From assembly GCA_034670305.1 (NCBI GenBank), contig JAXMNT010000033.1, positions 20,386-84,385 on the forward strand: a DNA stretch of 64,000 bases. Reading direction: 5' to 3'. The position numbers and the translations under genes are program-made. Numbering within the stretch: position 1 is the stretch's first letter; each line of letters opens with the position of its first letter. The notes beneath the pieces were generated by a model. It saw nothing but the letters and a program-made list of their open reading frames with translations. It was not told the origin of the DNA and did no database searches. This document shows, one piece after another, positions 23,546 through 40,057 of this stretch. Source of the stretch: Deltaproteobacteria bacterium (lineage in GTDB: Bacteria; Myxococcota_A; Polyangia; Polyangiales; Houyiibacteriaceae).

Positions 23546-23576
23546 CGTTCGCCTTGGCGTGGCGTACCATCGCCGC

Positions 23577-24323
23577 ATGAACAAGACCGCCGCTGCGAAC
23601 CCGCCCAAGAAGGCACCCGCTCGGAAGAAGGGGCCCGCCCAAAAGGCGCCGGCCCGGAAGAAGGGCCCGCCCAAGAAGGCACCCGCTCGGAAGAAGGGCC
23701 CGGCTGTGAAGGCCCCCGCCAAGAAGAAAGCCCCCGCCAAGAAGAAGGCCCCCGCCAAGAAGAAGGCCCCCGCCAAGAAGAAAGCCCCCGCCAAGAAGAA
23801 AGCCCCCGCCAAGAAGAAGGCCCCCGCCAAGAAGAAGGCCCCCGCCAAGAAGAAAGCCCCCGCCAAGAAGACGGCCCCCGCCAAGAAGAAGGCCCCCGCC
23901 AAGAAGAAAGCCCCCGCCAAGAAGACGGCCCCCGCCAAGAAGAAAGCCCCCGCCAAGAAGAAGGCCAAGAGCCCGCTTCCGGCCGTGGCGGAAGCGCTCC
24001 TCGTGCGGGTGCGGACGCTCGTGAAACGGCGCAAAGGGCTGTTCGAAGAGCGCCGCATGTTCGGTGGCGTGGCGTTCCTCTTTCACGGGCACATGACCGT
24101 CGGAGTCAGCGGCAAACACCCTCGGCAGATGACCGTGCGGGTGGGCAAAGACGGGCACGCCGACGCGCTCGCACAGCCGCACGCCACCCCCATGACGTTC
24201 ACTGGCCGCACGATGAAGGGATTCGTCTTCGTCGATCAGAAAGGGCTGACCTCGGACGCGGCGCTCCAAGCCTGGTTCGACCGGTCGCTCGCGCACGCCC
24301 GCACGCTTCCGCCCAAGTACTGA
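23577..24323 (+). CDS. Histone H1-like (KKKAPA)n region fused to a TfoX/Sxy N-terminal-like domain
   Basis: About 14 18-nt repeats (23712-23963); C-terminal ERRMFGG..F...G.M, M.FTGR.MKGFVFV, L..W....LPPK. Confidence 0.85.
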   Translation: MNKTAAANPPKKAPARKKGPAQKAPARKKGPPKKAPARKKGPAVKAPAKKKAPAKKKAPAKKKAPAKKKAPAKKKAPAKKKAPAKKKAPAKKKAPAKKTAPAKKKAPAKKKAPAKKTAPAKKKAPAKKKAKSPLPAVAEALLVRVRTLVKRRKGLFEERRMFGGVAFLFHGHMTVGVSGKHPRQMTVRVGKDGHADALAQPHATPMTFTGRTMKGFVFVDQKGLTSDAALQAWFDRSLAHARTLPPKY

Positions 24324-24375: not shown

Positions 24376-25434
24376 ATGGGCCCGATCGACGCACGCGTGA
24401 TCCGCGAGAGCCTGGGACGCTGGGGCGACGTGACCGACGCGCTCTGCGCGGTGCTCCGTGACTCCGACACGCGATCCGATGCCCTCGAAGCATCCGTCCG
24501 CCACCGAGCCGGGGCGTTCGTCGGCCACCGCATGATGATCGAAGGGGTCGACGCCGCGACGGCGCTGGCGGTCCTGAACGTACTCGGGTTCGACCTGCAG
24601 GAGTCGCCCTTCGCCGAACGGGTGGCGCGGGCGCCGGAGCTCCTGGCGATCGCCGGCTGGGATGCGGGCGGAGCGGAACTGGTCGGCAAGCTCTACCTCA
24701 ACGGGTCGGACGCGTCGGCTGCGGTCCGCGCCGAGCTCGCTCGGGCGTTCGGCTTGCCGGCCGAGGCCGGCGCGCCGCACCTCATCGGGTTCAACCTCCT
24801 CCGCGGCGGGACGGGCCTCGCCATCGAAACCAAAATCTACGACCAGTGGGCGTCCCTGGCGGAGTGTGCGGACGACGACGTCCCGCCCTTCCTCGCGGAC
24901 TGGCTCGGTGCGGCCGTGCCCGCGGGCCTCGTGCGGTCTCGCGTCGTCGACGACGGCAAGATCTCCACCAAGGCATGGTTCGTCGCACCGCGCGCGAACG
25001 ACGTCGCGGAGATCCTGACGCGGGTTTCAGGGTTCGATGGGGACCGGGCGCGCACCTGCGTCCCGTTCAAGACCGGCGTCTTGAAGAGCATCGGAGGTCC
25101 GCCGGACGGGTCGAGCTGGACCCTCTACTTCAAACCCGAGGGCGCCGGCGACGCCCCCCACGCCCTCGATCCGGTGGCGTGTTTCGGGACCGAAGAGGGT
25201 GAGGTCGGGCTCTACGTCGCGCCGAACGAAGGCACGCCCCGAGCGTATGTGCGGACCGCCCACCACGCGCTCTCCTATCGAGTCCGCGAAGGACAGCCCG
25301 CGTCCGGGGAGATCGAGGCGTTGATGACTTGGGCGGAAACACGCGTCCGGGCGTGCGAAGAAACCTCTCCCGTGGAACTGTCCGCCATCGACCTCCGCCA
25401 ACCCCCAGCGCCCTGGTGCCCCCGTGACCACTGA
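24376..25434 (+). CDS. Hypothetical protein (possible PT-barrel-like fold) with the shared C-terminal module
   Basis: Long ORF overlapping the next gene; recurring G[FW][DN]..K[LI]Y segments. Confidence 0.7.
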   Translation: MGPIDARVIRESLGRWGDVTDALCAVLRDSDTRSDALEASVRHRAGAFVGHRMMIEGVDAATALAVLNVLGFDLQESPFAERVARAPELLAIAGWDAGGAELVGKLYLNGSDASAAVRAELARAFGLPAEAGAPHLIGFNLLRGGTGLAIETKIYDQWASLAECADDDVPPFLADWLGAAVPAGLVRSRVVDDGKISTKAWFVAPRANDVAEILTRVSGFDGDRARTCVPFKTGVLKSIGGPPDGSSWTLYFKPEGAGDAPHALDPVACFGTEEGEVGLYVAPNEGTPRAYVRTAHHALSYRVREGQPASGEIEALMTWAETRVRACEETSPVELSAIDLRQPPAPWCPRDH

Positions 25435-26302
25435 ACCGGCCTCCGAAGCGCCGCTCCTTCCCGCCGGGCCGGCCGACCGCCACTTCGACTACTGCCTCCA
25501 ACCGTATCGGCCGAGGACCACGACGCGTGGCAAGGCGCGTTCAGAGAACCTGCTGTGGCATGCGCTGGACGCCTGCGGCCTGTCCGCGGCGAGGCCCGCA
25601 CTGCATGCACTTCAGGACGCGCTCGGCCGCGACATGACCGTGTGGGGATGGAAGTTCGACGGAAAACAGAACTGGGTCGAGCTCTACTTCTACGACCCGC
25701 AGAAGGAAGATGTGCGGGCGAGCGTGCCTGGCCTCAAGGAGATCCTCGCACCGCATCTCGCGCTCACCCCCGAGGTCCCGGACTGGGTGCGCTACATGAT
25801 GGTCAGCTTCGATCTGAAGCCCGAGACGTTCGAGACCGGCGTCGTCGACGAGGTCAACCTGTACCTCACCGGCACCGACGAACACGCCGGGCGTTCCTAC
25901 CGCGTGCGCGGGGGCGAAGCGCGGCTCGACAACACCTACCGATTCTTGCCGCCCAAACAAGAGATCGACACGGTGCTCTCGCTCCTGCAGAGCAGCATGT
26001 TCATCGACTACGACACCTCGCCGACGGTGCTCTCGAAAGTGTTGATACCCAACCTCTTCGCCTGCAAGCGCATCTGCATCGCGAAGAAGCAGCAGAGCGA
26101 CGGGGTCTACTACTCGGGCATCGACATCGACCAGCTGCTCTGGTTTCTGAAGGCGTTCCACTACCCCGCGCCGATCCAGGCGTTTGTGCGCCGACACAAG
26201 GTGCGGTTCGAACACCTCTTCTTCGACGTCGGGATCGACACGCGCCAGCACCCGGACAAACGCATCCACTATCCGAAATCCAGCTTCTACGGGACGCTCT
26301 GA
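25424..26302 (+). CDS. Hypothetical protein, aromatic-rich
   Basis: Protein-like composition, GC3-biased codons, overlaps the upstream gene. Confidence 0.75.
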   Translation: MTTEPASEAPLLPAGPADRHFDYCLQPYRPRTTTRGKARSENLLWHALDACGLSAARPALHALQDALGRDMTVWGWKFDGKQNWVELYFYDPQKEDVRASVPGLKEILAPHLALTPEVPDWVRYMMVSFDLKPETFETGVVDEVNLYLTGTDEHAGRSYRVRGGEARLDNTYRFLPPKQEIDTVLSLLQSSMFIDYDTSPTVLSKVLIPNLFACKRICIAKKQQSDGVYYSGIDIDQLLWFLKAFHYPAPIQAFVRRHKVRFEHLFFDVGIDTRQHPDKRIHYPKSSFYGTL

Positions 26303-26345
26303 TGCGCCCTTTGGAATCAGACACCCGTGTTCAGGCGGTGTTCTA

Positions 26346-27680
26346 GTGCAGAGCTACAAAGGCCGCTTCGATCCCACCCGCTTCGAAGACCTGACCGTCA
26401 CGATCGACTTCCGCTGTCACAGCGCGTGTCGGTTCTGCATCGTGCAGGAGGGCATGAACTACTTCAAAGGCGTCCCGCTCGAGCGGTTTCGAGCGGTCGT
26501 CGCGGACAATACGAAGGCGCCGCGCTACCGGCGGGTGACCTTCACCGGCGGCGAGGTGAGCCTCGACAAGAGCCTGTTCGACTACCTCGCGGTGGCCCGC
26601 GAATCGGGCAGCTTCGACCACATCCGGATCCAGACGAACGGCCGGCCGATGGCCGACGAAGCGTTCACGCAGAAGCTCATCGATGCGGGCGTCGATGAGT
26701 TCTTCGTCTCGCTGCATGGCGCCGACGCGAAGACGCAGGACTACATCTCGCAGCGCGAGGGGTCCTTCGACGAAGCGATGCGCGGGCTGGCCAACCTCCG
26801 CAAACACGACGTCGTCGTGATGACGAACACGGTGCTCACGACGTTGAACGCGCATCAGCTTCCGGAGATCGTCGAAACGGTTCGCCACATCGCGCCGACC
26901 CGCATGGAGTTCTGGTACTACCTGCCGATGGAGGACTTCGGGGACGAGCGCGGGCTCCTCCCGACGATGGACGTGCTCATTCCTCCCCTGAAAGCCGCCA
27001 TCGGCAAGGCCAAGGCATACGGCTTCGGGGTGGCGGTGAAATACGTGCCGCAGTGCCTCCTCGGAGAACACGGCGACGTCGTCGACAACACCCAGCCGGA
27101 CGTGGTGATCGTCGAAGACTTCTACGACGTCTACCCGCAGTTCGCGTGCCTCTACGAAGCCAAGTGCGAACACAGCGAGACCTGCCTCGGGCTGCACTAC
27201 CCCTACATCGAAAAGTACGGCTGGGAGAAGGACGCCCTGACCCCGGTGGCGCGCACGACGCCCTGGCGGGAGCCGGAGTACGGCCTCTCCCTGCCCTCCG
27301 ACGATCCCGGAGGCCAGGAAACCGAGCGCACCGATCAGCCCACGTGGCGCCACCTCGTCGAAGGCGTCGCCGAAGCACACGACATGGTGCTGGCGTCGGT
27401 GGTGCTCGACCGGCGCCGGTGCATCTACCGGTTCGAGTCCCCGGACTCGGAGACCAGCGTCGACCTCGTGCTCACCGCACGCAGCATGGAGCGCAAAGCG
27501 CTCGCGCGTTCGGCCTCGTTCAACATGCACTACCGGAACGTCTTCGGGGATCCCTCCTCGCTTCAGACGGTGCTCCGCGCAGCGATCGACCAGATCCGCG
27601 CCCGCGACAGCGGCGAACTCATGCTCGACGAACGCAAGGGGCTCGTCGGCCCGGACGCGTTCCGCCGCCCCCGCAAGTAG
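26346..27680 (+). CDS. Radical SAM protein (HxsC-like), start probably GTG 26346
   Basis: CHSACRFC (CxxxCxxC), TFTGGE, IQTNG, VSLHG; C-terminal Cys cluster CLYEAKCEHSETCLG. Confidence 0.9.
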   Translation: MQSYKGRFDPTRFEDLTVTIDFRCHSACRFCIVQEGMNYFKGVPLERFRAVVADNTKAPRYRRVTFTGGEVSLDKSLFDYLAVARESGSFDHIRIQTNGRPMADEAFTQKLIDAGVDEFFVSLHGADAKTQDYISQREGSFDEAMRGLANLRKHDVVVMTNTVLTTLNAHQLPEIVETVRHIAPTRMEFWYYLPMEDFGDERGLLPTMDVLIPPLKAAIGKAKAYGFGVAVKYVPQCLLGEHGDVVDNTQPDVVIVEDFYDVYPQFACLYEAKCEHSETCLGLHYPYIEKYGWEKDALTPVARTTPWREPEYGLSLPSDDPGGQETERTDQPTWRHLVEGVAEAHDMVLASVVLDRRRCIYRFESPDSETSVDLVLTARSMERKALARSASFNMHYRNVFGDPSSLQTVLRAAIDQIRARDSGELMLDERKGLVGPDAFRRPRK

Positions 27681-27726
27681 CGGAGGAGGCGGCGGTTCGG
27701 CCAAGACCGACCGCGGCGAGCTGCTG

Positions 27727-28037
27727 GTAGCAGGTCGCTGAAAAGCGACCTGCTCCCTTGCCGTTGCCCGTGCCCTTGCCCGCGTCGTGGACGCCGTGTG
27801 TTTCGCGACGGCGAGGCCGCGAATCGGAGCCCGATGCCCAGCGGACGAAGCCGCCGGGCATCGGTCGGTGCTACGCGGCGCAGCTCCGCAGCCGCGCGAC
27901 GCGAGCAGGTCGTCGCGATGCTCGTCGCGCTGATCAAGCGATCTGACCGCTGGTCCGCGGGCAAGGGCAAAGGCAAGGGCAGGGGCAAGGGGCAGGCTGC
28001 GAGAACGCCCTGCGGGCGTTCTTCAGCAGCCTGCTAG
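27727..28037. mobile_element. Non-autonomous structured element (MITE or REPIN-like)
   Basis: Inverted ends TAGCAGGTCGCTGAA / TAGCAGGCTGCTGAA, a hairpin at each end, inner (CCCTTG)n/(CAAGGG)n arms; second copy at 63877-64000. Confidence 0.75.
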
Positions 28038-29953
28038 AGCGCCGTGAGCTCGTCGGTGCCGTGCACTTCGGCGTAGCCGCGGCGAACGCCGAAACACTTC
28101 TTGCGGCCCGCGCACTGGCGGCACGCGAGGCCGCGCACCATCTCGCCGCCGTCGTAGGCTTCGGGGGCGTCGGCGAGCGCAGCGCTGTCGAAGACCTCGG
28201 GCGGGGTCAGACACAGCGGCAAGCCGCACATCGCGTCGAACCCGGAGACCTGGGTGCCACGCGCCGCGGCGATGCGAAGCCCGGCCGCGAGCGACGCCTG
28301 GATGTCCGTGTAGCGTGGAATGAGATCGGCGGTGCGCGGCACCATGTCGGTGGAAGGCGCCACGAACGAAACGCAGAGTTCGGCGCTCGGCCATCGGGTG
28401 GTCAGCAGCTCGACGAACGCGGGGAAGTCGGCGTGGTTGAGTGCGCAGAAGACGAAGTTCACCCGCACGCGCAGACCGCAGGCGACCGCCGCATCCAAAC
28501 CCGCCAGTGTCTGGACGAACGTGCCGGGGGCCTTCGTCACCGCGTCGGAGATCTCGGCGCAGCTTCCGTGCAGGGAGACGAAGAGCAGGTCGGCTCCCGC
28601 GTCCTTCAAGGAGCGCGCACGCGCGGGGTCGATGCGGGTGGCGTTGGTCTGGATCTCGAGGGTGCCCGCGCCGGCCTCGCGCGCCAGCCGGACCCAGTCT
28701 TCGAGGTGGGGCAGCAACGTGGGCTCACCGCCGGAGAGGTTGAGGTCGTCGCCCCGCACGGCGGCTTCGAGGATGGCCGCGCGGATCGCGGCGTCGTGGG
28801 CGGGCGGCAAGTGGGTGGACACAAAACAGAAGTCGCAGGCTTGGTTGCACCCGAACGCGACCCGCACCGTGCGCGCACGTCGGGGCGCCTGTCCCGGAGG
28901 GCGCTGGATCTCGTCTTGAAAGAGCTCGCGCTCGACTTGATCGGGAACACTGGAGATGACGCTCAAGCGGCGCCGCACACGGTCCTGTCCGACGGGCGCT
29001 GGTTCGGATGGGTCTCCGAACGGGAGCCCTGGGCATCGGTCGGCGAGCAAGCAGCCCGCGCACCCGTCGCGGCGTCCGTATCCCTGGCGGCGACTGCCCC
29101 CGCGCGAGAGCGTGAAGAGATGCGCCACCCGAGCGGGGCGTTCGAAGAGGCAGGGCGCGATGGGGGTGCTTGTCTCGAGCCGCAGCGCGATGCCGGCGCG
29201 ACGGGCCGCGATGTCGGTGGCTTCGATCGCGCGGGCGGCTTCTTGCGCGGTGCACCGCATCTCGGGCGCCGGACCTTCGCAAGGCACGTTCAACACCAGC
29301 GCCTCCACCGGCCAGCCCGCGTCCACCAGCCGCTCCGGCAGTTCGGGCAGATGCCCTCGGTTGCGGGCGAGGACCGGGGCGGAGATCTCCAGGCGCAGGC
29401 CCGCGGACACCACCGCTTCGATGCCCGCGCGCGCTCGTTCGAAGCCTCCGGGATCGCGGGTCAGGACGTCGGCCTCGTCGCCCCACCCGGGCAAATGCAC
29501 CCGGACCAAGTCGAGGCCGGCGTGCTTCAGCGCCGCGGCCCGCGCGCCATCCAGCAGCGTGCCGTTGGTCTCGAGCTCGAGCCGGCGCGCACTCGGTGTG
29601 GGCGTCGCGGTGTCGCTGGGCGTCGCAGTGTCGCTGGGCGTCGCAGTGTCGCTGGGCGTCGCGGTGCCGCTGGGCGTCGCGGTGCCGCTGGTGGCATCGC
29701 CGCGGCACAGCGACACGATCTTCGCCAGGTCCCGGCGCAGCGTGGGTTCGCCGCCGGTGATCACCAGCACCTCCGCGTCCGACGCGGCACGCGCCCGCGC
29801 CTCGACCGCCGCCAGCGCCACGAACGCACGGCGCTCTTTCGGGCGACGGCGGTGACAGAACGCGCATCCCTGGTTGCAGGTCTCGTTGGTGTGGAGCCGC
29901 GCCACCCCGCCGCGCCCTTGCATGCCCCACGTCGAGTCCCTCATCGGATCCAC
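28034..29953 (-). CDS. Protein with two tandem radical SAM domains (HxsC-like)
   Basis: CNQGCAFC+GGEPTL+ETNG and CNQACDFC+GGEPTL+QTNA; each followed by CxxCxxxxxC(P/F)G; TATPS(D/G) repeat at about 29600-29692. Confidence 0.9.
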   Translation of the reverse strand: MDPMRDSTWGMQGRGGVARLHTNETCNQGCAFCHRRRPKERRAFVALAAVEARARAASDAEVLVITGGEPTLRRDLAKIVSLCRGDATSGTATPSGTATPSDTATPSDTATPSDTATPTPSARRLELETNGTLLDGARAAALKHAGLDLVRVHLPGWGDEADVLTRDPGGFERARAGIEAVVSAGLRLEISAPVLARNRGHLPELPERLVDAGWPVEALVLNVPCEGPAPEMRCTAQEAARAIEATDIAARRAGIALRLETSTPIAPCLFERPARVAHLFTLSRGGSRRQGYGRRDGCAGCLLADRCPGLPFGDPSEPAPVGQDRVRRRLSVISSVPDQVERELFQDEIQRPPGQAPRRARTVRVAFGCNQACDFCFVSTHLPPAHDAAIRAAILEAAVRGDDLNLSGGEPTLLPHLEDWVRLAREAGAGTLEIQTNATRIDPARARSLKDAGADLLFVSLHGSCAEISDAVTKAPGTFVQTLAGLDAAVACGLRVRVNFVFCALNHADFPAFVELLTTRWPSAELCVSFVAPSTDMVPRTADLIPRYTDIQASLAAGLRIAAARGTQVSGFDAMCGLPLCLTPPEVFDSAALADAPEAYDGGEMVRGLACRQCAGRKKCFGVRRGYAEVHGTDELTAL

Positions 29954-30003
29954 AGGGTAGCGGAGTTGCGAACGGCGAGGGGTCCGCCTGCTACCATGCC
30001 CGG

Positions 30004-30759
30004 GTGCCCTCGACGCGTGCAGAGCAGCTTCGGACGCAGGGGTTCACCGTCTTCGATCGGCTCTACGACGAGGCGTGGGTGGACCGGATGCGGGCGGCGA
30101 TTCTCGGCATCTACGAGGACGCCGGCAGCCCCGAATGCCACGCGCACCAGACGCGGGAACATCGACCGGGGCTTCACATCGGACCGGCCGGATTCGCGAT
30201 CCCACAGCTTCTCCCGCGCCTCGATCCCGACGCCCGGATCGCCCATCCGCTGGTGGTGGAGACGCTGCGCGCGTTCCTCGGCGACGCGATGCGGCTGGAG
30301 ATCGCAGGCGCCGTGGTGACCGACCCCTCGCGGCCCCACTTTGGTTGGCACAACCACGTGGGTGGGCACGACGACGGCGTGTACCGAAAGCGTGGCACGT
30401 GGCCGACGGTGGACCACGCGCGGCGGGTGATGACGTTGACCTACCTGCAGGATCTCGACGACGCGCATGGACCGGTGCGCGTCTACCCCCACCGGGTCGG
30501 CGATCCCTCGTCGCCGCCGCACGACCCGAAGTCGGCGCACTGGCCAGGCGAGGTCGTGCTGCGGCCGCGCGCCGGGTCGCTGGTGGTCATCGAAGAGTGC
30601 ACATGGCACGCCGTGCAAGCCGCGACGGCACCCGACAAACGCATCTTCGTGGGGCTGGCGTACGCGGCGGCGCCGGCCGAGATCGGTGGCTGGGCGGACC
30701 CGACGATCGCGGAGGTCGGCGCGCACCACACCGATCCCTTGTTGCGCTCACTGCTCTGA
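30004..30759 (+). CDS. PhyH-like Fe(II)/2OG oxygenase-fold protein
   Basis: N-terminal ..QGF.V, WHNH, YLQD....GP..V.P, AGS.V.....WHA, R.F. Confidence 0.85.
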   Translation: MPSTRAEQLRTQGFTVFDRLYDEAWVDRMRAAILGIYEDAGSPECHAHQTREHRPGLHIGPAGFAIPQLLPRLDPDARIAHPLVVETLRAFLGDAMRLEIAGAVVTDPSRPHFGWHNHVGGHDDGVYRKRGTWPTVDHARRVMTLTYLQDLDDAHGPVRVYPHRVGDPSSPPHDPKSAHWPGEVVLRPRAGSLVVIEECTWHAVQAATAPDKRIFVGLAYAAAPAEIGGWADPTIAEVGAHHTDPLLRSLL

Positions 30760-32484
30760 CGGAGCGGACGCGCGCGGCTTGTCGCGGTAGACCTTTTCGA
30801 GCGCCTCGAGCGACGTGCCGCGGAGGCGGCGCGCGAGGTCGCGCAAGAGCTCCAGCAACGCGTCGGGCGCCTCTTTGCCGCCGTACGAGAGACCGAAGCC
30901 ATCGCTCCGCACGAAGTGCGCGTTCCCCTCGAGCGGCGCGAACCGAATTTCCGTCTCGCCGAACGAGGGATGATGTACCTGCAGGCGGAGCACGCCTTTC
31001 TCGAACGCCGCCGCGACGGCGCGGGCGGGCGACGGCAGCGCCAGGGTGCGCACGAGAGCCGCGGTGGGCGCCGACATCGGCACCGGCACTTCGATCGGCC
31101 GCGCGCGGGGCCGGGCGCCGTCCTTGCCGGCCCGCTTGGCCGCGATCTGCACGAGCTGATGTTGCAGGGCGCCGAGTTCGGCAAACGTCTCGGCCCGCTC
31201 TTGCGCACTGACCGCCGGCGGCATGCTCGTCTTGACCTGGTCGTAGTCGCTGAAGGTCTTCCTCGCCGGACCGGGCCAGTGCGCGACCCCCGCTTCGCCC
31301 AGCACCGTGCTCGGCAAGGGATGGAAGTTCGACCACATGAACGAGCCGGGCTTCAGTCGGTGAAGGAGCGCCGTCGTCGCTTTCATCTGTTCCCGCGTCT
31401 CGCCCGGCAACATGGTCATCAACGAAGCGCTCGTTTCGAGTCCCAGATCCCGGCAATCGTCGAAGACCGCTTGAAGCCGCGCGTCGCTCGTCCGGCGGTT
31501 CAGCACGTCCCGACGAAACGCCTCGTCGCCCGCTTCGATGCCGCAGTGAAAGAGCGAACACCCGGCCTTCTTGAGCAGCGTCAGGCGCGGGCGGGTCGCC
31601 GCGTTCGGATGCATCTCGACTTTGAACGGCAAGCCCACGCGCGCCGGGTACACCTCGGCGAACTTCTCGAGCCATTTCAGGTCCACCGGGAAGTGTTCGT
31701 CCCAGAACTCGAAGCCTTCCGGCCGGTACCGGTCGCGCAGCGAGACGAGCTCGTCGCACAGCTCCGCGACTGGGCGGGTGTTGCGGCGGCTCTTCTCCGA
31801 GAACCGGCCGAGCTTGCCCCACGACGGCGCCGAGCAGTACGCGCAGGAGAACGGACACCCCCGGCCGGCGCGGGTGGGCAGGTAGCCGTCGATGAGTGGA
31901 CCGAACGTGTTGATGCCCGCTTCGATCGCCTCGGGCACCGATCCGAACACTTCGTAGTCCCACCACGGAAGCGCGGCGATGTCCGGCTCCGAATCGGCCG
32001 GCGGAGGATCCCCATCCCACCCACGGTCTGACGCCGCGTCGCGAACCCACAAACCAGGCGATGTTTCGGGCGGTTCGCCGCGCGACAGCCGATCGAGCAG
32101 GCGCGCCATGGGCCGCTCTCCTTCGCCCAGGCAAATCGCATGCACCCCCGCGCACTCGGCGACCTCGCGCGGCGCCAAGCTCGCGTGGTAGCCGCCGACC
32201 ACCACGGTGGCGTCGGTTGTCTGGCGGTCGATCAGCGCGTGCGCACCGGGCCAGTCCCGCGTCATGCACGAGAGCGCCAAGACGTCCGGCGCGAGCCCGT
32301 CGATGTGCGCCGCGACGTCGTCGATCGTGTACCCGCGGAAGACCTCGAGTGCCTCACTCTCGTGCCCCTCCGCTCGAACCACTGGGGAGAGCGCCGCCAC
32401 CGACGAGCTGAACGCGCGCGGTGGGTCCGTGAAGAACACGAAGAGCACGCGCAGGGTCCGCTTCGCAGATCGCGCGGCGGTCAT
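30748..32484 (-). CDS. B12-binding (class B) radical SAM protein
   Basis: VVGGYHA..P, LGEGE, GRGCPFSCAYC, FWDE.F, GIEAG, LPGET; ATGA overlap with upstream gene. Confidence 0.93.
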   Translation of the reverse strand: MTAARSAKRTLRVLFVFFTDPPRAFSSSVAALSPVVRAEGHESEALEVFRGYTIDDVAAHIDGLAPDVLALSCMTRDWPGAHALIDRQTTDATVVVGGYHASLAPREVAECAGVHAICLGEGERPMARLLDRLSRGEPPETSPGLWVRDAASDRGWDGDPPPADSEPDIAALPWWDYEVFGSVPEAIEAGINTFGPLIDGYLPTRAGRGCPFSCAYCSAPSWGKLGRFSEKSRRNTRPVAELCDELVSLRDRYRPEGFEFWDEHFPVDLKWLEKFAEVYPARVGLPFKVEMHPNAATRPRLTLLKKAGCSLFHCGIEAGDEAFRRDVLNRRTSDARLQAVFDDCRDLGLETSASLMTMLPGETREQMKATTALLHRLKPGSFMWSNFHPLPSTVLGEAGVAHWPGPARKTFSDYDQVKTSMPPAVSAQERAETFAELGALQHQLVQIAAKRAGKDGARPRARPIEVPVPMSAPTAALVRTLALPSPARAVAAAFEKGVLRLQVHHPSFGETEIRFAPLEGNAHFVRSDGFGLSYGGKEAPDALLELLRDLARRLRGTSLEALEKVYRDKPRASAPSEQ

Positions 32485-33299
32485 GGCGCACCGTATGCCC
32501 GCGCAAGCGCGGGGTGGTCGGTCAACGCATGCGCGGTCTGCTCGTCGCGGCGTTTGGTCGGAGCCAGGCCGGCGCGTCGCACGAAGAACGCGAAGAAGTA
32601 CCGGTGGCCTGCCCGGCGCATGGGCGTCGCCGCGTGCCAGGTCCCTTGATCGAGCAGCACGACCGAGCCCGCCGGCGCGCGCACTTCCTTCGCGCCAGGC
32701 CACGGGACACGACCGGGCTCGTGCGGCGGTGCCGTCGGCGAATCGGCGCGGCGCGGATGCACCAGCAAGGTGCCGAACGCGTCGTCGAGTGGGGTCGTGT
32801 AGAGGGTGCACCCGATGCGCTCCACGCCGGACGGATGCGGGTACGACTTCCGTCGCAGGTCCGGCTCGTCGATGCCGCCCGCGTGGTGGTGCCAGAAAAG
32901 AAACCCCCGCGACGCATCGCACACGACCCCGGTGCCGAGCTCCAGTTCGAACCCCTCGCCGAGCGTGCGTGCGAAGAGATCGAGCAGGACCGGTCTCAGC
33001 AACAGGTCTGCGAGTCCGGGTGCGTGCCGCAAGATCCCCGCACACGCGAGGCCGACGGGGCTGACGTGCATGCCCGGTTCGACGTGCACGTCCTCTTGCG
33101 AAAAGAGGGGCGGCTCGCCGACCCGCCGCCAAGCGCGTTCGAGCGTGGCTTCGTACCGGGCACACTCCGCTTGCCCCACCAGCGAGGGAAGCACGGCGTA
33201 GCCCTCGGTCTCGAGCGCGCGGTGGAGTTCGGCGGCGCCGGGTGCGGACCGCTCGCGCGCCGGTTCGACATCGCGCGCCTTGGCATCGGGCACGCTCAC
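32481..33299 (-). CDS. PhyH-like Fe(II)/2OG oxygenase-fold protein
   Basis: EGYAVL, FWHHHAGG, G.LLVHP, PAGSVVL.DQ.TWHA, R.F; GTGA coupled. Confidence 0.85.
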   Translation of the reverse strand: MSVPDAKARDVEPARERSAPGAAELHRALETEGYAVLPSLVGQAECARYEATLERAWRRVGEPPLFSQEDVHVEPGMHVSPVGLACAGILRHAPGLADLLLRPVLLDLFARTLGEGFELELGTGVVCDASRGFLFWHHHAGGIDEPDLRRKSYPHPSGVERIGCTLYTTPLDDAFGTLLVHPRRADSPTAPPHEPGRVPWPGAKEVRAPAGSVVLLDQGTWHAATPMRRAGHRYFFAFFVRRAGLAPTKRRDEQTAHALTDHPALARAYGAP

Positions 33300-34072
33300 C
33301 GCGGGTCCCCTGGGAGGATCTCCTGCAGGAGTGGCGACGCACCCGTCACCGCGCGCAGGGTCTCGTCGTGCAGTTCGGTCGGGCCCACGTCGCCGGCCGC
33401 GAACCAGAGACCGAAGAAGATCCGCAACTCGGTGTCGCTCGTGCGCGGGAGCGCGGCGTGCCAGGTCGTCTGGTCGACCAGGACCGTGGTGCCCGGCGGC
33501 CCTTCGATCACCACTTGCCCAGGCCAGGGCCCACCGATCGGTTCCGTGCACGGCGGACTGCCGTCGTCGTTGCGATCCGGGTGTACGAGCAGACGCCCGG
33601 CGCCTTCCTTCATGTCGTCCAGGTAAACGATCATCGCCAAGCGCTGGAGCTTCGGCAGCTGCGGCCGTTCGCCGCGCCGCCGAAAGAGTTCTTCGTCGAT
33701 GCCGCCGACGTGGTTGTGCCAGTCGAAGAACGGCCGAGTGTGGTTGGTGACCACGGCGCCGGTGAGTTCGAGATGGGTCCCGCGACCGAGCGCGGCTTGG
33801 GCGATGCGAACCACCTCTTCGTCGAGCATGAACGCGTGCAGTTCGGGGCTCTTCTTCAGCACCTTCGTCAGCACGAGCCCGGTGCTCGACAGCTCCACGT
33901 TCTCCGCCACCGTCTTGTGCTCTTTCGAGTACAGCGGCGGCCGACCGAGCGCCTCGTACTGCGCGACGATCGCCGCACGCAGCCGCTTCACTTGGTCGGG
34001 CGTGTATTGACTCGGCAGCACACAGAAGCCCCGCGCCTCGATCTCACGTGCGCGCACGTGGACGCTGTTCAT
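33296..34072 (-). CDS. PhyH-like Fe(II)/2OG oxygenase-fold protein
   Basis: RGFCVL, DWHNHVGG, YLDD...GAG.LLVHP, PPGT.VL.DQ.TWHA, RIF. Confidence 0.85.
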   Translation of the reverse strand: MNSVHVRAREIEARGFCVLPSQYTPDQVKRLRAAIVAQYEALGRPPLYSKEHKTVAENVELSSTGLVLTKVLKKSPELHAFMLDEEVVRIAQAALGRGTHLELTGAVVTNHTRPFFDWHNHVGGIDEELFRRRGERPQLPKLQRLAMIVYLDDMKEGAGRLLVHPDRNDDGSPPCTEPIGGPWPGQVVIEGPPGTTVLVDQTTWHAALPRTSDTELRIFFGLWFAAGDVGPTELHDETLRAVTGASPLLQEILPGDPR

Positions 34073-35802
34073 CCCTGCGGCCTCTCGCCGAGCGCCTCAC
34101 CCTCCATCGCCGGGGGCGGTCCGAGCAGACAAGCGCTGGCGTGGGCGTGCACCACATCGATGACGCGCCGAAGTCCGACAGCGCTCGTGCGATCGACCGG
34201 CCCTTGATGGGTGTAGGCGATGCCGTCTCGTTCCACGAAGCAGCGCGGACGATCCACGGCGGGCTTGGCTTCCAGCACGACGCCACCGTCGGGCCCCTCG
34301 AGGTCGTAGAAGACGGCCGCGTCTCCCGCCCGCGCGTTGTTGAGCCGCCACGTGGGCCCGAGTTCGGACACCTCGTCGCTGAGCGTCTGCAGAATCTCCG
34401 CGCCGATGCCGCGATGGACCACCCCCGCGTCCGCCCGGCCAGAGGATCGAACGCTCGGCGATGTGTCGTCGCGCTCACCCCTGTACTTGTCGGGGCCGCT
34501 CGACGTGAGCGCGAACCCTACCCACCCCTCGTTGAGAATGGGCCGGTCGGCGTTCGAGGCCAGCTCGTACAACCACTGCCACGTCTCCTCCAAGTCGCGC
34601 GCCGGCCACCCATCGCAAGAACGGGTGATGAAGTCCGCGGGATCGAAATCGATGTGCAGCTCGTCCGCGCGTTCGAGAAGCGCGTCGGGCAGAACGATGC
34701 ACTTGAACGCTTTGACCGTGTCGCCCAACTCGAGCGACTTCTCGACGGTGCGTTTGAAGGAGTCGGGGTTGTCGCCGGGCAACCCGAGGATGAGTTCGAT
34801 GTCGAAATCGAGCCGGCCGCGCATGCGGTCGAGCACCGTCTCGAACTTCGCCAGGTCGAATGGTCGACCGAGCCGCCGGAGGACGTCCTCGTCGAAGCTC
34901 TGGATGCCCACGCTGGCCTGCACCTGGCCGACGCCATCGAAGAACTTCAAGTGATGCTCTTCGAGGTACGTCGGATACAGGTGCCCGTGCACGATCGAAT
35001 CTTTCAACACGCCGACGTCGTTCTCCGCGGCGACCAGCGCCCGAAACGCGCGTGGGCTCAGGTTGAACGCGGCGTCCAAGAAGAAGACGTTCGGCACATT
35101 CGCCCGCTGGAGCCCCTGCAGGTGCGCGCGCAGGTAGTCGACGCCGTGCACGCGATCGGACTTCTGCTCGCCCCACTGGCAGAACGCGCAGTGGATCGGA
35201 CATCCCCGGAAGGTCTCGATGTAGCCCGTCTTGTGGAGCGGGCCGACATCGAGTTGGTACGGCGAGGGGTAGTCGTCGATGACCGGCCGTTCGATGGTCG
35301 CGCTGCTGCGCCACAGGCCGTGCTGAGGCACTTCGAGTCCTGGGACCCGGCTTGTCCAACGGGGCGTCTGGTGTTCGCGCACCAGCGCTCGAATCACTTC
35401 TTCGCCCTCGCCCGTGACGACCGCGTCGAGGCGGTTGCGAAAGCCCTGGTAGAGCGGAAGGTCCAGCACCGAACGCCGGGCCGCCGGGCCGCCCGCGACC
35501 ACGGGCATCTTCGGCCAACGCGCGCGGATCCGTTCGGTGAGTGCCGCGAACACCGGAAGCGACCAGATGTAGGTGGACAGCCCGATCAGGGTCGGCCCGA
35601 AGGTCTCGAGCTCCGCCATGAAGACGTCCGGGTCATCGCTCCGAAGGTCGAGCAGGAGCACCTCGACGTCGTCGAGGTCGGGGGCGCTTCGAATGGACGC
35701 GCGCAGCTTCTCGATGCCGTACGAGAACGAGAAGAACGTTCCGTTCGGATCCCGCCACTGCGCGTCCATCGCCACCAGTGCCACTCGACGATTCACGCGC
35801 AA
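34069..35802 (-). CDS. B12-binding (class B) radical SAM protein
   Basis: GLSTYIW, VAGGP, GEGE, ETFRGCPIHCAFCQW, FLDAAFN, GIQS, ILGLPGD. Confidence 0.93.
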   Translation of the reverse strand: MRVNRRVALVAMDAQWRDPNGTFFSFSYGIEKLRASIRSAPDLDDVEVLLLDLRSDDPDVFMAELETFGPTLIGLSTYIWSLPVFAALTERIRARWPKMPVVAGGPAARRSVLDLPLYQGFRNRLDAVVTGEGEEVIRALVREHQTPRWTSRVPGLEVPQHGLWRSSATIERPVIDDYPSPYQLDVGPLHKTGYIETFRGCPIHCAFCQWGEQKSDRVHGVDYLRAHLQGLQRANVPNVFFLDAAFNLSPRAFRALVAAENDVGVLKDSIVHGHLYPTYLEEHHLKFFDGVGQVQASVGIQSFDEDVLRRLGRPFDLAKFETVLDRMRGRLDFDIELILGLPGDNPDSFKRTVEKSLELGDTVKAFKCIVLPDALLERADELHIDFDPADFITRSCDGWPARDLEETWQWLYELASNADRPILNEGWVGFALTSSGPDKYRGERDDTSPSVRSSGRADAGVVHRGIGAEILQTLSDEVSELGPTWRLNNARAGDAAVFYDLEGPDGGVVLEAKPAVDRPRCFVERDGIAYTHQGPVDRTSAVGLRRVIDVVHAHASACLLGPPPAMEGEALGERPQG

Positions 35803-35853: not shown

Positions 35854-37575
35854 TCAGCGGCCCTTCTTCTGAGCGCCCATCTTCTTCGCGAGCTTCGCCC
35901 AACTGTCTTTGAGCGTGATCGTTCGGTGAAAGACCGCGTCTGCGACCCCGTCCGACACGATGCGGTCCAGCACGAAGTACCCGAGCCGCTCGAACTGCAC
36001 GCGGGTTCCAGCCGCCAGCCCACGCACCGAGGGTTCCGCGACCCCGTGGACGTCCTCGAGGCTCTCCGGGTTCAAGTGGGCGCGGAAGTCGTCTCCTTCG
36101 GACGGGTCCTCGGACGAGAAGAGCCGCTCGTAGAGCCGCGCCTGGATCGGCACGCCCTTCTCCGCGCTCACCCAGTGCAGGGTGCCGCGCACCTTCCGGC
36201 CGTCCGCCGGGCTGCCGCCGCCACTCTCCGGATCCCACGTGCAGCGAAGTTCGATCACTTCGCCCGCGTCGTTGCGGACGACCTCGTCGCAGGTGATGAG
36301 CGCCGCGCCCCGAAGCCGGACCTCGCGGCCTAGACCCAGCCGGAACCACTTCTTGGGCGGGTCGTCCATGTAGTCGTCCTGCTCGACGTAGACGGTGCGG
36401 GTCAGCACCACCTTCCGGGTGCCGGCGCTCTCGTCGTGCGGGAGGTTCGGCACCTCGTACTCGTGGGCTTCGCCTTCGGGGAAGTTCGTCAGCGTGACCT
36501 TGAGCGGGCGAAGCACCGCCATGATGCGGTGCGAGGTCGCGTTGAGGTCTTCGCGCAGTTCGTGCTCGAGCAGACCGACGTCGACGAGGCCACCGTGTTT
36601 GGACACGCCGATCCGCTCGCAGAACGCGCGCAGCGACGACGCCGTGTACCCGCGGCGCCGCATGCCGGAGAGCGTCGGCATCCGGGGATCGTCCCAGCCT
36701 TCGACCACGCCCTCTTCCACGAGCGACAAGAGCTTGCGCTTGGACAGCAGTGTGTACGAGAGCGCGAGCCGACCGAACTCGATCTGGCGGGGCGGCGACT
36801 CGATCTCGAGCGCGGCCAAGAACCAATCGTAGAGCGCGCGGTGGTTGACGAACTCGAGCGAACAGACCGAGTGCGTGACTCCTTCGATCGCGTCCGACTG
36901 CCCGTGGGCCCAGTCGTACATCGGGTAGATGCACCAGGTGTCGCCGGTGCGGTGGTGGGTCACTTTTCGGATCCGGTACATGAGCGGATCTCGCAGCTTC
37001 AGATCCTTCGACGCGAGGTCGATCTTCGCGCGCAGCACCGCGGCGCCTTCGTCGAATCCGCCCGCCTTCATCTTCGCGAAGAGCTCGAGGTTCTCCTCGA
37101 CCGACCGGTCGCGATCGGCGCTCGCTTCGCCGACGCGGTGGAAGTCTCCTCGGGTCGCGCGGATCTCCTCTTCGCTTCGGAGGTCGACGTACGCGAGCCC
37201 CTTCTCGATCAATTGCACCGCCCAGTCGTGCAGCTGCTGGAAGTAGTCGGACGCGAAGTGTTCGTGTTCGCCCCACGAGAAGCCGAGCCACTCGATGTCC
37301 GCCTTGATGGCGTCGACGTACTCGGTGGACTCCTTCTCCGGGTTGGTGTCGTCGAAGCGGAGGTTGGTGTGGGCTTCTTTCAACCCGCGGTCGCGTCCGA
37401 TCTGCGCGAGCCCGAAGTTCAAGCAGATGGCTTTCGCGTGGCCGATGTGCAGGTAGCCATTGGGCTCCGGCGGGAACCGAGTGACAACGCGCTGAGCCCG
37501 TCCGCTCTCGATCTCGCCCTCCACGAGCTCCGCCACGAAGTTGCCCGGCTGTCCCTCATCGCGCTCTGCGTTCAT
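35854..37575 (-). CDS. glnS: Glutamine--tRNA ligase
   Basis: TRFPPEPNGYLHIGH, RFDDTNP, YPMYD, LSKRKL, WDDPRMPT, QFERLGYF. Confidence 0.97.
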   Translation of the reverse strand: MNAERDEGQPGNFVAELVEGEIESGRAQRVVTRFPPEPNGYLHIGHAKAICLNFGLAQIGRDRGLKEAHTNLRFDDTNPEKESTEYVDAIKADIEWLGFSWGEHEHFASDYFQQLHDWAVQLIEKGLAYVDLRSEEEIRATRGDFHRVGEASADRDRSVEENLELFAKMKAGGFDEGAAVLRAKIDLASKDLKLRDPLMYRIRKVTHHRTGDTWCIYPMYDWAHGQSDAIEGVTHSVCSLEFVNHRALYDWFLAALEIESPPRQIEFGRLALSYTLLSKRKLLSLVEEGVVEGWDDPRMPTLSGMRRRGYTASSLRAFCERIGVSKHGGLVDVGLLEHELREDLNATSHRIMAVLRPLKVTLTNFPEGEAHEYEVPNLPHDESAGTRKVVLTRTVYVEQDDYMDDPPKKWFRLGLGREVRLRGAALITCDEVVRNDAGEVIELRCTWDPESGGGSPADGRKVRGTLHWVSAEKGVPIQARLYERLFSSEDPSEGDDFRAHLNPESLEDVHGVAEPSVRGLAAGTRVQFERLGYFVLDRIVSDGVADAVFHRTITLKDSWAKLAKKMGAQKKGR

Positions 37576-37675: not shown

Positions 37676-38518
37676 TCAGGTCGACGACAAGAGCTGGGCG
37701 AACCGGGGGGCGCCCGAGCGGCGCACGGTCCGGACGGTCGCGCAGGTGGTGTCGCCGCAGCCGATCTCATGGTCGAACACCAGCTCGTCCGCCGAGACGC
37801 GGCCCACCCGCCGGGTGCGCACCCAAGCCGATTCTCCGGCCACCATGCCCTTGCTGTACGACACCTTCTCGGCCACCGGGACGAGCTCCGCCGGGTCCAT
37901 GCCCGCGTCGGCCATCGCGCGCGACACCGACTCGTCCGCCCAGTCGAGGTACGCCGGATGGTTCACGTGGGCGAGGGGATCCATCCAGGTGTGCCAGACC
38001 TGGAACTCGAAGCCGCCCGTCTGGGCTGCGGAGGTACCGGCCGCTTCTTCGGTCTCGAACGCCGGCATCGCGGGCACCGAGTCCGGGTCGAGGTCGACCA
38101 CCGGAAACGCATCGCTCAAAGAGGCCGGCGCGCGCGCTGCGGCGAGCTGCAAGATCCCCTCGCCGTCTTTCTCCGCATGCACGTGCACCCACTCCTGGGA
38201 GCCGCGTGCGATGTCACCGCGGTCGCTCGTGATCCGGATCTCTCGCGTGGAGAAGATGCCGCGGCGAAACCGGCGCACCCAGGTCTTCGCGTGGAGCGTC
38301 TCCCCGTAGACCGCCTCCCGGTCGTGCACGACCGTCATCGAACGCATCACGAACGCGGACCCGGTCTCGCGGTACCGGCCCGGAGGCCAACCCGCGCGGG
38401 TCGATCCCTCGACGGCGACCTCTTGCATGGCCCGCCACACATCCCCGGCCCTCGCCGCGTCACGCACCGAGAACGCGTGGCGGGGCAAGCCGACTTCGAA
38501 ACTCCACTCCGACTGCAC
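37676..38518 (-). CDS. Double hot-dog acyl-ACP/acyl-CoA thioesterase
   Basis: C-terminal 280 aa of the long track ORF; QEVAV..S, MDPLAHVNH..YL.W..E. Confidence 0.8.
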   Translation of the reverse strand: MQSEWSFEVGLPRHAFSVRDAARAGDVWRAMQEVAVEGSTRAGWPPGRYRETGSAFVMRSMTVVHDREAVYGETLHAKTWVRRFRRGIFSTREIRITSDRGDIARGSQEWVHVHAEKDGEGILQLAAARAPASLSDAFPVVDLDPDSVPAMPAFETEEAAGTSAAQTGGFEFQVWHTWMDPLAHVNHPAYLDWADESVSRAMADAGMDPAELVPVAEKVSYSKGMVAGESAWVRTRRVGRVSADELVFDHEIGCGDTTCATVRTVRRSGAPRFAQLLSST

Positions 38519-38617
38519 GACGCTCTTTACCGCCCCGCGACAGTCGGCGCACGGGGGTTCCTGGCCCGAACCTGCGGACCCTTCCTTGGCGGGTACGCGG
38601 CTGGTACGGTCACACCG

Positions 38618-40015: not shown

Positions 40016-40057
40016 GGAAGCCCGCAAGAGACGCCAGGGCGTGGTACCGTCCGGTGC

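Follow-up and report, generated by a model that had tools for sequence, protein, structure and literature searches.

Prenyltransferases of the ABBA type, among them bacterial enzymes of the DMATS type (5-DMATS SCO7467, IptA, PriB, CymD and TleC) and cyanobactin F-type proteins (PagF, KgpF, LimF, DciF and PatF), are built around a ten-stranded antiparallel barrel with surrounding helices, and in NphB, DMATS and PagF a basic, tyrosine-lined lumen binds and ionizes prenyl diphosphates. In the hapalindole, ambiguine and welwitindolinone clusters of cyanobacteria, the prenyltransferases AmbP1, AmbP3 and FamD1 are accompanied by the WelO5 halogenase and Rieske oxygenases; to our knowledge, radical S-adenosylmethionine (rSAM) enzymes, and those of the cobalamin-binding kind (B12-rSAMs), are absent from these pathways. 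Here we describe a locus in which proteins predicted to have the ABBA fold are encoded next to an rSAM enzyme. It lies in a 64,000-nucleotide stretch of DNA (hereafter the window) from a Deltaproteobacteria bacterium of the Polyangiales (assembly GCA_034670305.1, contig JAXMNT010000033.1, positions 20,386 to 84,385 of the forward strand), where nine genes are found between a TfoX_N gene (23559–24323) and glnS (35854–37575). Two of them, orfA and orfB, are predicted from structural models to encode ABBA/PT-barrel prenyltransferase-fold proteins, and with the rSAM gene that follows (rSAM1) they form a triad that is the fixed core of the locus. We regard the locus as a real, widely conserved and horizontally patchy biosynthetic gene cluster, probably for a small natural product. 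The nine genes are as follows.

24376–25434, plus strand: orfA, 352 aa, PT-barrel by its fold predicted with AlphaFold2 (AF2)
25424–26302, plus strand: orfB, 292 aa, predicted PT-barrel (divergent), best conserved of all the cluster genes
26346–27680, plus strand: rSAM1, 444 aa, Pfam Radical_SAM (76 bits)
28034–29953, minus strand: double rSAM, 639 aa, two Pfam Radical_SAM stretches
30004–30759, plus strand: PhyH1, 251 aa, Pfam PhyH (20.9 bits)
30748–32484, minus strand: B12a, 578 aa, Pfam B12-binding (54.5 bits) and Radical_SAM (56.6 bits)
32481–33299, minus strand: PhyH2, 272 aa, Pfam PhyH (20.6 bits)
33296–34072, minus strand: PhyH3, 258 aa, Pfam PhyH (25.6 bits)
34069–35802, minus strand: B12b, 577 aa, Pfam B12-binding (43.8 bits) and Radical_SAM (48.2 bits)

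This gene set is the agreement of an open reading frame (ORF) list, Pfam scans and a custom gene caller based on GC content at third codon positions (GC3), the last of which favours an alternative start for B12b at 35784. The initial annotation of this DNA, made from the sequence alone, had counted five rSAM domains and three PhyH-like oxygenases among the nine genes, and Pfam and the gene caller bore out both counts and the positions; all four rSAM proteins score above 29.5 bits, the Pfam PF04055 cut-off. It had also remarked on the absence of non-ribosomal peptide synthetase or polyketide synthase, transporter and protease genes, and none was found among the nine genes by Pfam and NCBIfam scans. 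In the NCBIfam scan of ten proteins, none reached a curated cut-off, so that the set is assigned to no curated family, and orfA, orfB and the three PhyH-like proteins gave no match at all.

The AF2 models of orfA and orfB, built on 19 and 35 sequences, respectively, have predicted local distance difference test (pLDDT) values of 93.5 and 92.4 and a predicted template modelling (pTM) score of 0.90 each, and that of orfB has ten strands. In Foldseek searches of the PDB the best matches of orfA were 5-DMATS, IptA, PriB, CymD and TleC (top E value 1.5e-8), and those of orfB included KgpF, DciF, AmbP3, FamD1, LimF, PirF and PagF (E values of ~1e-6, TM-scores of ~0.5); AmbP1 is also among the structural matches of orfB. 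VIA-align placed 242–256 residues of orfA on PatF and CymD (Z 16.1, root-mean-square deviation 3.7–3.8) and aligned 240 residues of orfB (Z 13.0, root-mean-square deviation 3.9), and for each of the two proteins all 50 listed entries were aromatic prenyltransferases. The likeness to the ABBA prenyltransferases therefore extends over 240–256 residues at Z 13–16 and includes the Lys/Arg/Tyr-lined lumen. The differences lie in the sequence (8–18 % identity, with no match to a Pfam prenyltransferase family), in the pairing with an rSAM gene and the predicted docking, and in a conserved C-terminal extension of ~90 aa which in orfA follows the barrel (residues ~1–260, judged by VIA-align coverage). 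Language-model features of both proteins point to PTase_Orf2, DUF5838 and Trp_DMAT, which we take as a lead only. The two genes had been listed initially as hypotheticals; this holds in that neither has a family match, but both are predicted to fold as PT-barrels and are not featureless.

The invariant residues of both families are found on strands of the models. In orfA these are K105/Y107/N109, K153/Y155/Q157, R52/E56 and S300/R302. In orfB, where alignment and model were combined, all ten strands carry invariant residues with i/i+2 spacing (K77, E86/Y88/Y90, M126/S128/D130, Y147 and R157 in the first half; N170/Y172/F174, K222, Y229/S231, D268/G270/D272 and K285/S287/Y289 in the second), and by analogy the lumen is of the basic, tyrosine-lined type that binds and ionizes prenyl diphosphates in this superfamily. 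At least 216 relatives of orfB were found; those that are named come from Sandaracinaceae, Polyangiaceae and other Myxococcota, every one of them is called 'hypothetical protein', and none has a Pfam domain. A search for longer orfB relatives gave two natural orfA–orfB fusions (P0193, 630 aa; P0194, 626 aa), which speak for a coupling of the core proteins, both metagenomic, for which frameshift read-through of overlapping genes is a possible origin. The fold is common to the two barrels and the sequence is not: as sequence paralogues they were rejected, with a BLASTP E value of 0.003 over 73 residues and an hhalign probability of 0.8 % between the family profiles. An Fe–S or metal site formed by the invariant C24, C214 and C218 of orfB was considered and dropped, because a paralogue that conserves the lumen (genome G017) is without C24 and C214. 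An orfB homologue (32 % identity, E 1e-42) is also present on a 1600-bp contig labelled Candidatus Woesearchaeota (L080, GC 26 %), a label remote from the Myxococcota and Binatia that make up the range of the other loci; the contig is too short to give context.

The third member of the triad, rSAM1, has an invariant CX3CX2C motif (C24/C28/C31) and an invariant four-cysteine auxiliary-cluster region (C237/C268/C274/C280) in the family alignment, and its nearest solved relatives are SkfB (3e-10), BlsE (7e-9) and GDGT-MAS (4e-5). The description of this protein as HxsC-like in the initial annotation was right as far as the best-scoring NCBIfam models go, since these are of the HxsC type and match over the rSAM core (HxsC4, NF038332, 81.7 bits; HxsC, TIGR03977, 72.9 bits). 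The scores are, however, far from the cut-offs of 500 and 267.9, respectively, no Hxs partner was found among the neighbouring genes by Pfam or NCBIfam, and the resemblance is, on the sequence comparisons, a generic one to the MoaA/NirJ/SPASM group.

A complex of rSAM1 and orfB was predicted using a 35-row alignment for each partner and three controls. The model has an ipSAE (interaction prediction score from aligned errors) of 0.78 (0.78, 0.81 and 0.74 in the separate runs) against 0.00 for the best of the three controls, the contacts agree to at least 73 % between runs, and partner pLDDT does not fall below 87. Of 157 solved complexes 116 reach the mark set for the tool, as do 2 of 215 mismatched pairs, a calibration that is only rough for this pair because custom alignments were used. 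On the rSAM1 side the modelled interface (265–273, 285–295 and 307–309) coincides with the region of the invariant C268, C274 and C280, and on the orfB side (178–185, 200–215, 232–234 and 266) it is made up of helices and the ends of strands around one of the barrel's mouths, so that the model supports a seating of orfB on the auxiliary-cluster lobe of rSAM1. We know of no solved complex of a PT-barrel with an rSAM enzyme, and it therefore seems unlikely that the prediction reached the mark by reproducing a known structure.

In the Nannocystaceae/Enhygromyxa loci L068, L069, L074, L075 and L079 the triad is replaced by the arrangement orfB–rSAM1'–orfB'–rSAM1, without orfA. The orfB' copies have lost most of the lumen K, R and Y residues and have kept K178, C214, S231 and G232; the retention of interface residues next to an rSAM1-type gene fits, at the level of sequence, with a conserved docking surface.

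The C-terminal domain of rSAM1 (residues ~327–444, encoded by 27324–27677, ~120 aa) has no Pfam model. Its profile matches 72 representatives at E≤1e-3, which include the rSAM1 family, some TPR proteins and the N-termini of ~15 PMT_2 (GT-C glycosyltransferase-like) proteins of ~700 aa (E 1e-6 to 1e-4); its matches to repeat proteins of the Ig, cadherin and He_PIG kinds appear to be compositional. A docking domain common to the C-termini of rSAM1, B12a and B12b had been noticed by eye and is not claimed here. In hhalign comparisons of these C-termini, B12a and B12b, which are paralogues anyway, gave a probability of 94 %, and rSAM1 gave 25 % with B12a (E 8e-4) and 5 % with B12b. At E≤1 the profile of the rSAM1 C-terminus finds only rSAM1 itself in its own genome, the sole B12-rSAM among its matches in a library of 1.8 billion proteins is a distant one (P0186, 4e-4) and no orthologue of B12a, and Pfam finds nothing in the C-terminal regions of the three proteins.

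Conservation of the triad was assessed in two surveys, one of 60 related genomes (61 with the genome itself) and one of orfB loci, in which one genome per species was used and 46 loci were obtained, 24 of these having at least 5 kb on both sides (full-flank loci); genes near orfB were counted by tblastn. Genes of the orfA type are present in eight of the 60 relatives, that is, in 9 of 61 genomes with our own, and the triad is accordingly patchy. The 46 orfB loci come mainly from Polyangia (Sandaracinaceae, Polyangiaceae, Nannocystaceae/Enhygromyxa and Minicystis rosea DSM 24000), with three from Binatia and a few singletons. In 41 of the 46 loci, and in 23 of the 24 with full flanks, the gene immediately downstream of orfB is rSAM1, and among the five loci without an adjacent copy three are at or near a contig end, one is rearranged and one is without the gene. 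A copy of orfA is found near orfB in 28 loci (19 full-flank), a B12-rSAM of at least 40 % identity in 19 (11), any B12-rSAM in 27 (17), a PhyH-like gene in 22 (13) and a double rSAM of at least 40 % identity in 6 (3). In 18 of the 46 loci the triad has a B12-rSAM (≥40 % identity) as well as a PhyH-like gene beside it, and seven loci have at least two of each. The clustering exceeds chance.

The arrangement varies around this core. In L051 nine co-directional genes are found in the order B12b–PhyH–PhyH–PhyH2–B12a–PhyH–orfA–orfB–rSAM1, L038 is likewise a single co-directional array, and G004 has one co-directional array of PhyH, B12b, orfA, orfB, rSAM1 and PhyH. All of these families recur in the closest relative (G025) in a different order, with the triad adjoining B12b instead of the double rSAM, and in G049 the double rSAM adjoins the triad. 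In place of PhyH-like and B12-rSAM genes, the triad of Binatia, Minicystis, G049, G017 and L076 is accompanied by genes for two or three WelO5-family 2-oxoglutarate (2OG) enzymes, Rieske oxygenases, TauD enzymes, Cupin_8, NUDIX or metallo-β-lactamase-fold proteins, or a carbamoyltransferase. A fixed core of orfA, orfB and rSAM1 with lineage-specific oxidative or methylating decoration is a pattern typical of natural-product clusters. It recalls the hapalindole-type clusters, in which ABBA-fold proteins are also encoded beside many non-haem iron enzymes that functionalize C–H bonds, and the relatives that carry two to three WelO5-family genes and Rieske genes by the triad resemble them further. 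The window differs from these relatives in carrying PhyH-like genes, and from the hapalindole-type clusters in that Pfam scans of its genes found no isonitrile synthase or Stig cyclase.

Among the decorating genes, B12a and B12b both encode a B12-binding domain (PF02310) at the N-terminus and, after it, an rSAM domain, all above the Pfam cut-offs, and on this evidence both are assigned to the class B (cobalamin-dependent) rSAM enzymes. The nearest solved relatives of B12b are the iterative C-methylases TokK (6e-19) and CysS (1.7e-13), and it aligns over both domains with TokK/ThnK of the carbapenems and CysS of the myxobacterial cystobactamids. It differs from these enzymes in scoring far below the family cut-offs (64.5 bits against 700 for the KedN5 subfamily), in the ~130-aa C-terminal domains of these B12-rSAMs, which are unrelated to known families, and in its pathway context. 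More generally, B12a and B12b reach the cut-off of none of the NCBIfam equivalogs HpnR, HpnJ, BchE, KedN5, PhpK and the TsrM type, with scores of 54–78 bits against cut-offs of 251–750.

The three PhyH-like proteins share 33–34 % pairwise identity (34 % between PhyH1 and PhyH3), and the Pfam PhyH (PF05721) gathering score of 22 is exceeded by PhyH3 (25.6) and is not reached by PhyH1 (20.9) or PhyH2 (20.6). Against the PDB their family profile matches SnoK best (1.9e-6), followed by EctD (0.007), and in common with the PhyH family (SnoK, EctD, EvdO2 and PhyH) they have the distal His (W-H-A) and the 2OG-binding Arg, which are kept in 30 of 30 sequences aligned. In place of the canonical W-H-x-D, however, the alignment shows an invariant W-H-x-H-x-G-G-x-D, followed by W-H-A and R. 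HMMER aligned Asp126 to the iron ligand of EctD across a five-residue gap, and with this five-residue insertion the second metal ligand would be either His121 or Asp126; the metal site thus appears from the sequence to be non-canonical.

The initial annotation had proposed a multi-step radical and oxygenase pathway, which the conservation of the cluster across genomes supports; homologues that were merely scattered would have spoken against it, and the same families are found together in many other genomes. It had further supposed that the pathway tailors a substrate whose genes lie outside the locus, be it a protein, a peptide, a sterol or a lipid-linked glycan, and this part has not gained support, since the PT-barrels and rSAM1 form the core and the B12-rSAM and PhyH-like genes the variable decoration. 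Because the PT-barrels are part of the invariant core with rSAM1, the cluster more likely has its own scaffold-forming enzymes that act on primary metabolites. Our current working hypothesis, for which we put the chances at slightly better than even, is that the pathway encoded here is self-contained and leads to a small molecule that is prenylated, C-methylated and hydroxylated and has undergone a radical rearrangement. The analysis shows the folds, the conservation, the linkage and the predicted docking, and from them we infer the chemistry of the pathway. In this scheme, it would fall to orfA and orfB to bind an allylic prenyl diphosphate together with an electron-rich acceptor, the latter taken from primary metabolism, and to join the two. 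Docked through its auxiliary-cluster lobe on one mouth of the orfB barrel, rSAM1 would abstract a hydrogen from the barrel-bound intermediate and so drive a radical C–C cyclization, a rearrangement or a decarboxylation. B12a and B12b would then methylate unactivated carbons, the three PhyH-like Fe/2OG enzymes would hydroxylate or desaturate C–H bonds, and the tandem double rSAM could provide up to two further radical steps. That the substrates are small molecules is suggested by analogy with the nearest solved relatives of B12b (TokK and CysS) and of the PhyH-like proteins (SnoK and EctD), all of which act on small molecules.

An aromatic amino acid or indole/tryptophan is our leading guess for the acceptor, because orfA is matched best by prenyltransferases that act on tryptophan and indole and because indoles of the 4-prenyl type are made by Sandaracinus. 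One such compound is the subject of a paper on the synthesis of indiacen B (PMC4660955), and the sandacrabin paper states that the responsible prenyltransferase could not be pinpointed (PMC9306752). The triad family could include the prenylated Sandaracinus alkaloids that lack an assignment, although we treat the link to indiacen and sandacrabin as a lead only. A bolder suggestion, which we advance tentatively and consider to have rather less than an even chance, is that the triad represents an unrecognized type of holoenzyme, in which a PT-barrel, or perhaps a pair of them, is physically coupled to an auxiliary-cluster rSAM enzyme so that prenyl-cation and radical chemistry act on one bound intermediate, and that it founds a natural-product family widespread in Polyangia and Binatia.

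A number of points weigh against the working hypothesis. The Foldseek TM-scores are merely ~0.5, and no Pfam family, PTase_Orf2 (PF11468), Trp_DMAT (PF11991) and PF19156 included, matched either orfA or orfB at a threshold as loose as E≤5; a sequence-profile search of the PDB with orfB likewise returned no prenyltransferase at E≤10. A shared fold is not proof of a shared function, so that orfA and orfB may, but need not, bind and transfer prenyl diphosphates, and PatF, which is among the best matches of orfA, is a barrel that we take to be inactive. Similarly, the complex model, with its rough calibration, supports binding of orfB to rSAM1 and does not prove it. Pfam scans found no prenyl-diphosphate synthase or acceptor-supply gene in the cluster, and the choice of acceptor is a guess. 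B12-rSAM and PhyH-like genes are both missing from the surroundings of orfB in six of the 24 full-flank loci, the double rSAM is in several relatives on another contig or far from the triad, and the counts are not independent events, because the loci come from kindred genomes.

The alternative that survives best is that the barrels are not transferases but substrate-binding or chaperone subunits, with the rSAM enzyme carrying out all core chemistry on a non-prenyl substrate. The predicted interface between orfB and rSAM1 would suit such a role, as would the Nannocystaceae paralogues, which keep interface residues and lose the lumen K, R and Y, and the presence of PatF, presumably an inactive barrel, as a top match of orfA. 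We nevertheless consider it unlikely, as the main orfB lineage keeps an invariant, basic, tyrosine-lined lumen involving all ten strands, which is hard to explain for a mere scaffold.

It is also conceivable, though improbable, that the cluster matures a ribosomally made peptide with post-translational modifications (RiPP) or a protein, the precursor of which is encoded elsewhere or is too small or variable to detect. The barrels would then prenylate side chains in the manner of the cyanobactin F proteins, the rSAM enzymes would crosslink or epimerize, the B12-rSAMs would C-methylate and the PhyH-like enzymes would hydroxylate, as in proteusins. Peptide prenyltransferases (KgpF, DciF, LimF, PirF and PagF) are the best Foldseek matches of orfB, the best solved relative of rSAM1 is the RiPP maturase SkfB, and there are many RiPP rSAM families among the weak NCBIfam matches; every one of these family scores is, however, far under its cut-off, and by VIA-align small-molecule enzymes of the DMATS type equal or outscore the peptide enzymes. 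The SAM-cluster motif of rSAM1 begins at residue 24 and so leaves no room for an N-terminal RiPP recognition element (RRE), and Pfam and NCBIfam found no RRE/PqqD domain, just as they found no protease or transporter. The initial annotation had seen no obvious precursor peptide, and this stands: no conserved ORF of 25–130 aa, the range to which the search applies, is present in the 46 loci and the window (peptides of <25 aa or encoded at a distance fall outside it), and the small-ORF search gave only matches in near-identical relatives and antisense artefacts.

A distinctly improbable reading is the tailoring of a membrane lipid or polyprenyl-linked molecule (a hopanoid, sterol, polyprenol or lipid-linked glycan), in which the PT-barrels would handle a polyprenyl diphosphate and the B12-rSAMs would methylate an isoprenoid skeleton after the fashion of HpnP and HpnR. 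Weak NCBIfam matches to HpnR (54 bits), HpnJ, 'lipid biosynthesis B12-binding/radical SAM' and Tes lean this way, as do GDGT-MAS among the PDB matches of rSAM1 and the resemblance of its C-terminal domain to the N-termini of ~15 PMT_2 (GT-C) proteins. The HpnR scores are, however, 54.2 bits for B12b and 32.4 bits for B12a against a cut-off of 650, and no squalene, hopene or sterol cyclase, hpn or other lipid gene was found in the scanned genes of the window. Moreover, the triad is present in only 9 of 61 related genomes and its tailoring sets are swapped by lineage for WelO5, Rieske or TauD enzymes; this patchy distribution and exchange favour secondary over membrane metabolism.

That the triad, the double rSAM and the B12-rSAM/PhyH operon are unrelated modules that merely lie side by side is very improbable, for although both strands are used, several relatives have the double rSAM on another contig than the triad or a long way from it and a quarter of the full-flank loci are without B12-rSAM and PhyH-like genes, these genes accompany the triad in the 18 loci and in multiple copies in the seven given above, L051 and L038 are single co-directional arrays, the PhyH-like family is found nowhere else in the genome, and the clustering survives rearrangement in the closest relative.

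The layout of the locus implies at least three or four transcription units, namely orfA–orfB–rSAM1 (plus), the double rSAM (minus), PhyH1 (plus) and B12b–PhyH3–PhyH2–B12a (minus). In the last of these, an operon of four overlapping genes with B12b first and B12a last, the start–stop coupling recorded in the initial annotation can be read directly in the sequence (ATGA at 34069–34072, GTGA at 33296–33299 and ATGA at 32481–32484). orfA and orfB overlap by 11 nt, and PhyH1 is divergent from the double rSAM and overlaps B12a by 12 nt at its 3' end. GC content is even throughout the region. Searched by tblastn (E≤1e-5), the whole 7.93 Mb genome contains no PhyH-like genes of this family beyond the three, and a single copy each of orfA, orfB, B12a and B12b. 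A consensus promoter scan gave no sigma-70-like site against 0.5 expected by chance; terminator-like sites numbered 15 against 7.7 expected, several of them within repeats, and the scan was uninformative.

The double rSAM consists of two rSAM modules in tandem, and each of these has auxiliary cysteines of its own. In 18 orthologues the cysteines of module 1 are retained in 15 (C26/30/33) and 17 (C268/298/301/307) sequences, and those of module 2 (C369/373/376 and C576/581/611/614/620) in all 18. Orthologues at E≤1e-110 are present in 12 of the 60 relatives, and in the orfB survey those of at least 40 % identity were sought within 10 kb of orfB, which gave the six loci counted above. A place in the same pathway is plausible; it is less certain than for the other genes, because the recurrent neighbours of the double rSAM in relatives are just other rSAM genes. 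Within the gene, an 18-nt tandem repeat (29599–29691, 5.2 copies) encodes (TATPSD)n between the first SAM-cluster motif and the remainder of domain 1, and since the orthologues align to residues ~5–85 and again from ~121, this insertion looks specific to this genome.

A natural-product cluster centred on prenyltransferase-fold enzymes is of a known kind, but the architecture of the core appears to be unprecedented. The initial annotation knew of no described pathway with this composition, and full-text literature searches agree with it in that they returned no description of a cluster of PT-barrel, rSAM, B12-rSAM and PhyH genes, the prenyltransferase list in the sandacrabin supplement lying outside their coverage, and no paper in the searched collection that contains both of the terms 'PT-barrel' and 'radical SAM'. 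We are also aware of no earlier case of a PT-barrel as obligate partner of a radical SAM enzyme. If the working hypothesis is correct, orfA and orfB would represent two new PT-barrel sequence families without a Pfam or NCBIfam model and a new way of combining prenyl-cation and radical chemistry, and they would mark a cluster family which similarity-based annotation has left as 'hypothetical protein' in at least 46 species-level genomes. For enzymology, the cluster would also be a useful source of class B rSAM methylases that are new and of PhyH-like oxygenases whose metal-binding motif is unusual, and it would offer a candidate route to myxobacterial prenylated alkaloids that lack assigned genes. 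The carriers include the cultured Minicystis rosea DSM 24000 (CP016211.1, ~5.99–6.01 Mb) and Sandaracinus amylolyticus (protein AKF03213.1), and the product is therefore directly testable.

The genes that flank the cluster (those for a P450–ferredoxin fusion, an esterase, an LCM methyltransferase, TfoX and glnS) are not conserved with it in relatives. The first of these (16549–18207, minus strand) encodes a cytochrome P450 fused to a C-terminal 4Fe–4S ferredoxin domain. Beyond glnS, a 1235-aa protein (37676–41383, minus strand), the sole Pfam match of which is a C-terminal 4HBT_2 thioesterase domain, is likewise not conserved with the cluster. The TfoX_N protein (23559–24323, plus strand) has a long Lys/Ala/Pro-rich N-terminal region with weak scores to histone H1-like models, encoded by an 18-nt tandem repeat (23708–23966, 14.4 copies, 94 % matches). 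A hexanucleotide repeat, (GGGCAA)5.5, is present at 27959–27991 in the 354-bp convergent gap between rSAM1 and the double rSAM. Elsewhere in the same genome (G000), contig C3 has a second rSAM-rich locus at ~239.6–248.3 kb, with at least four matches of the rSAM1 or double rSAM type (24–32 % identity) within 9 kb.

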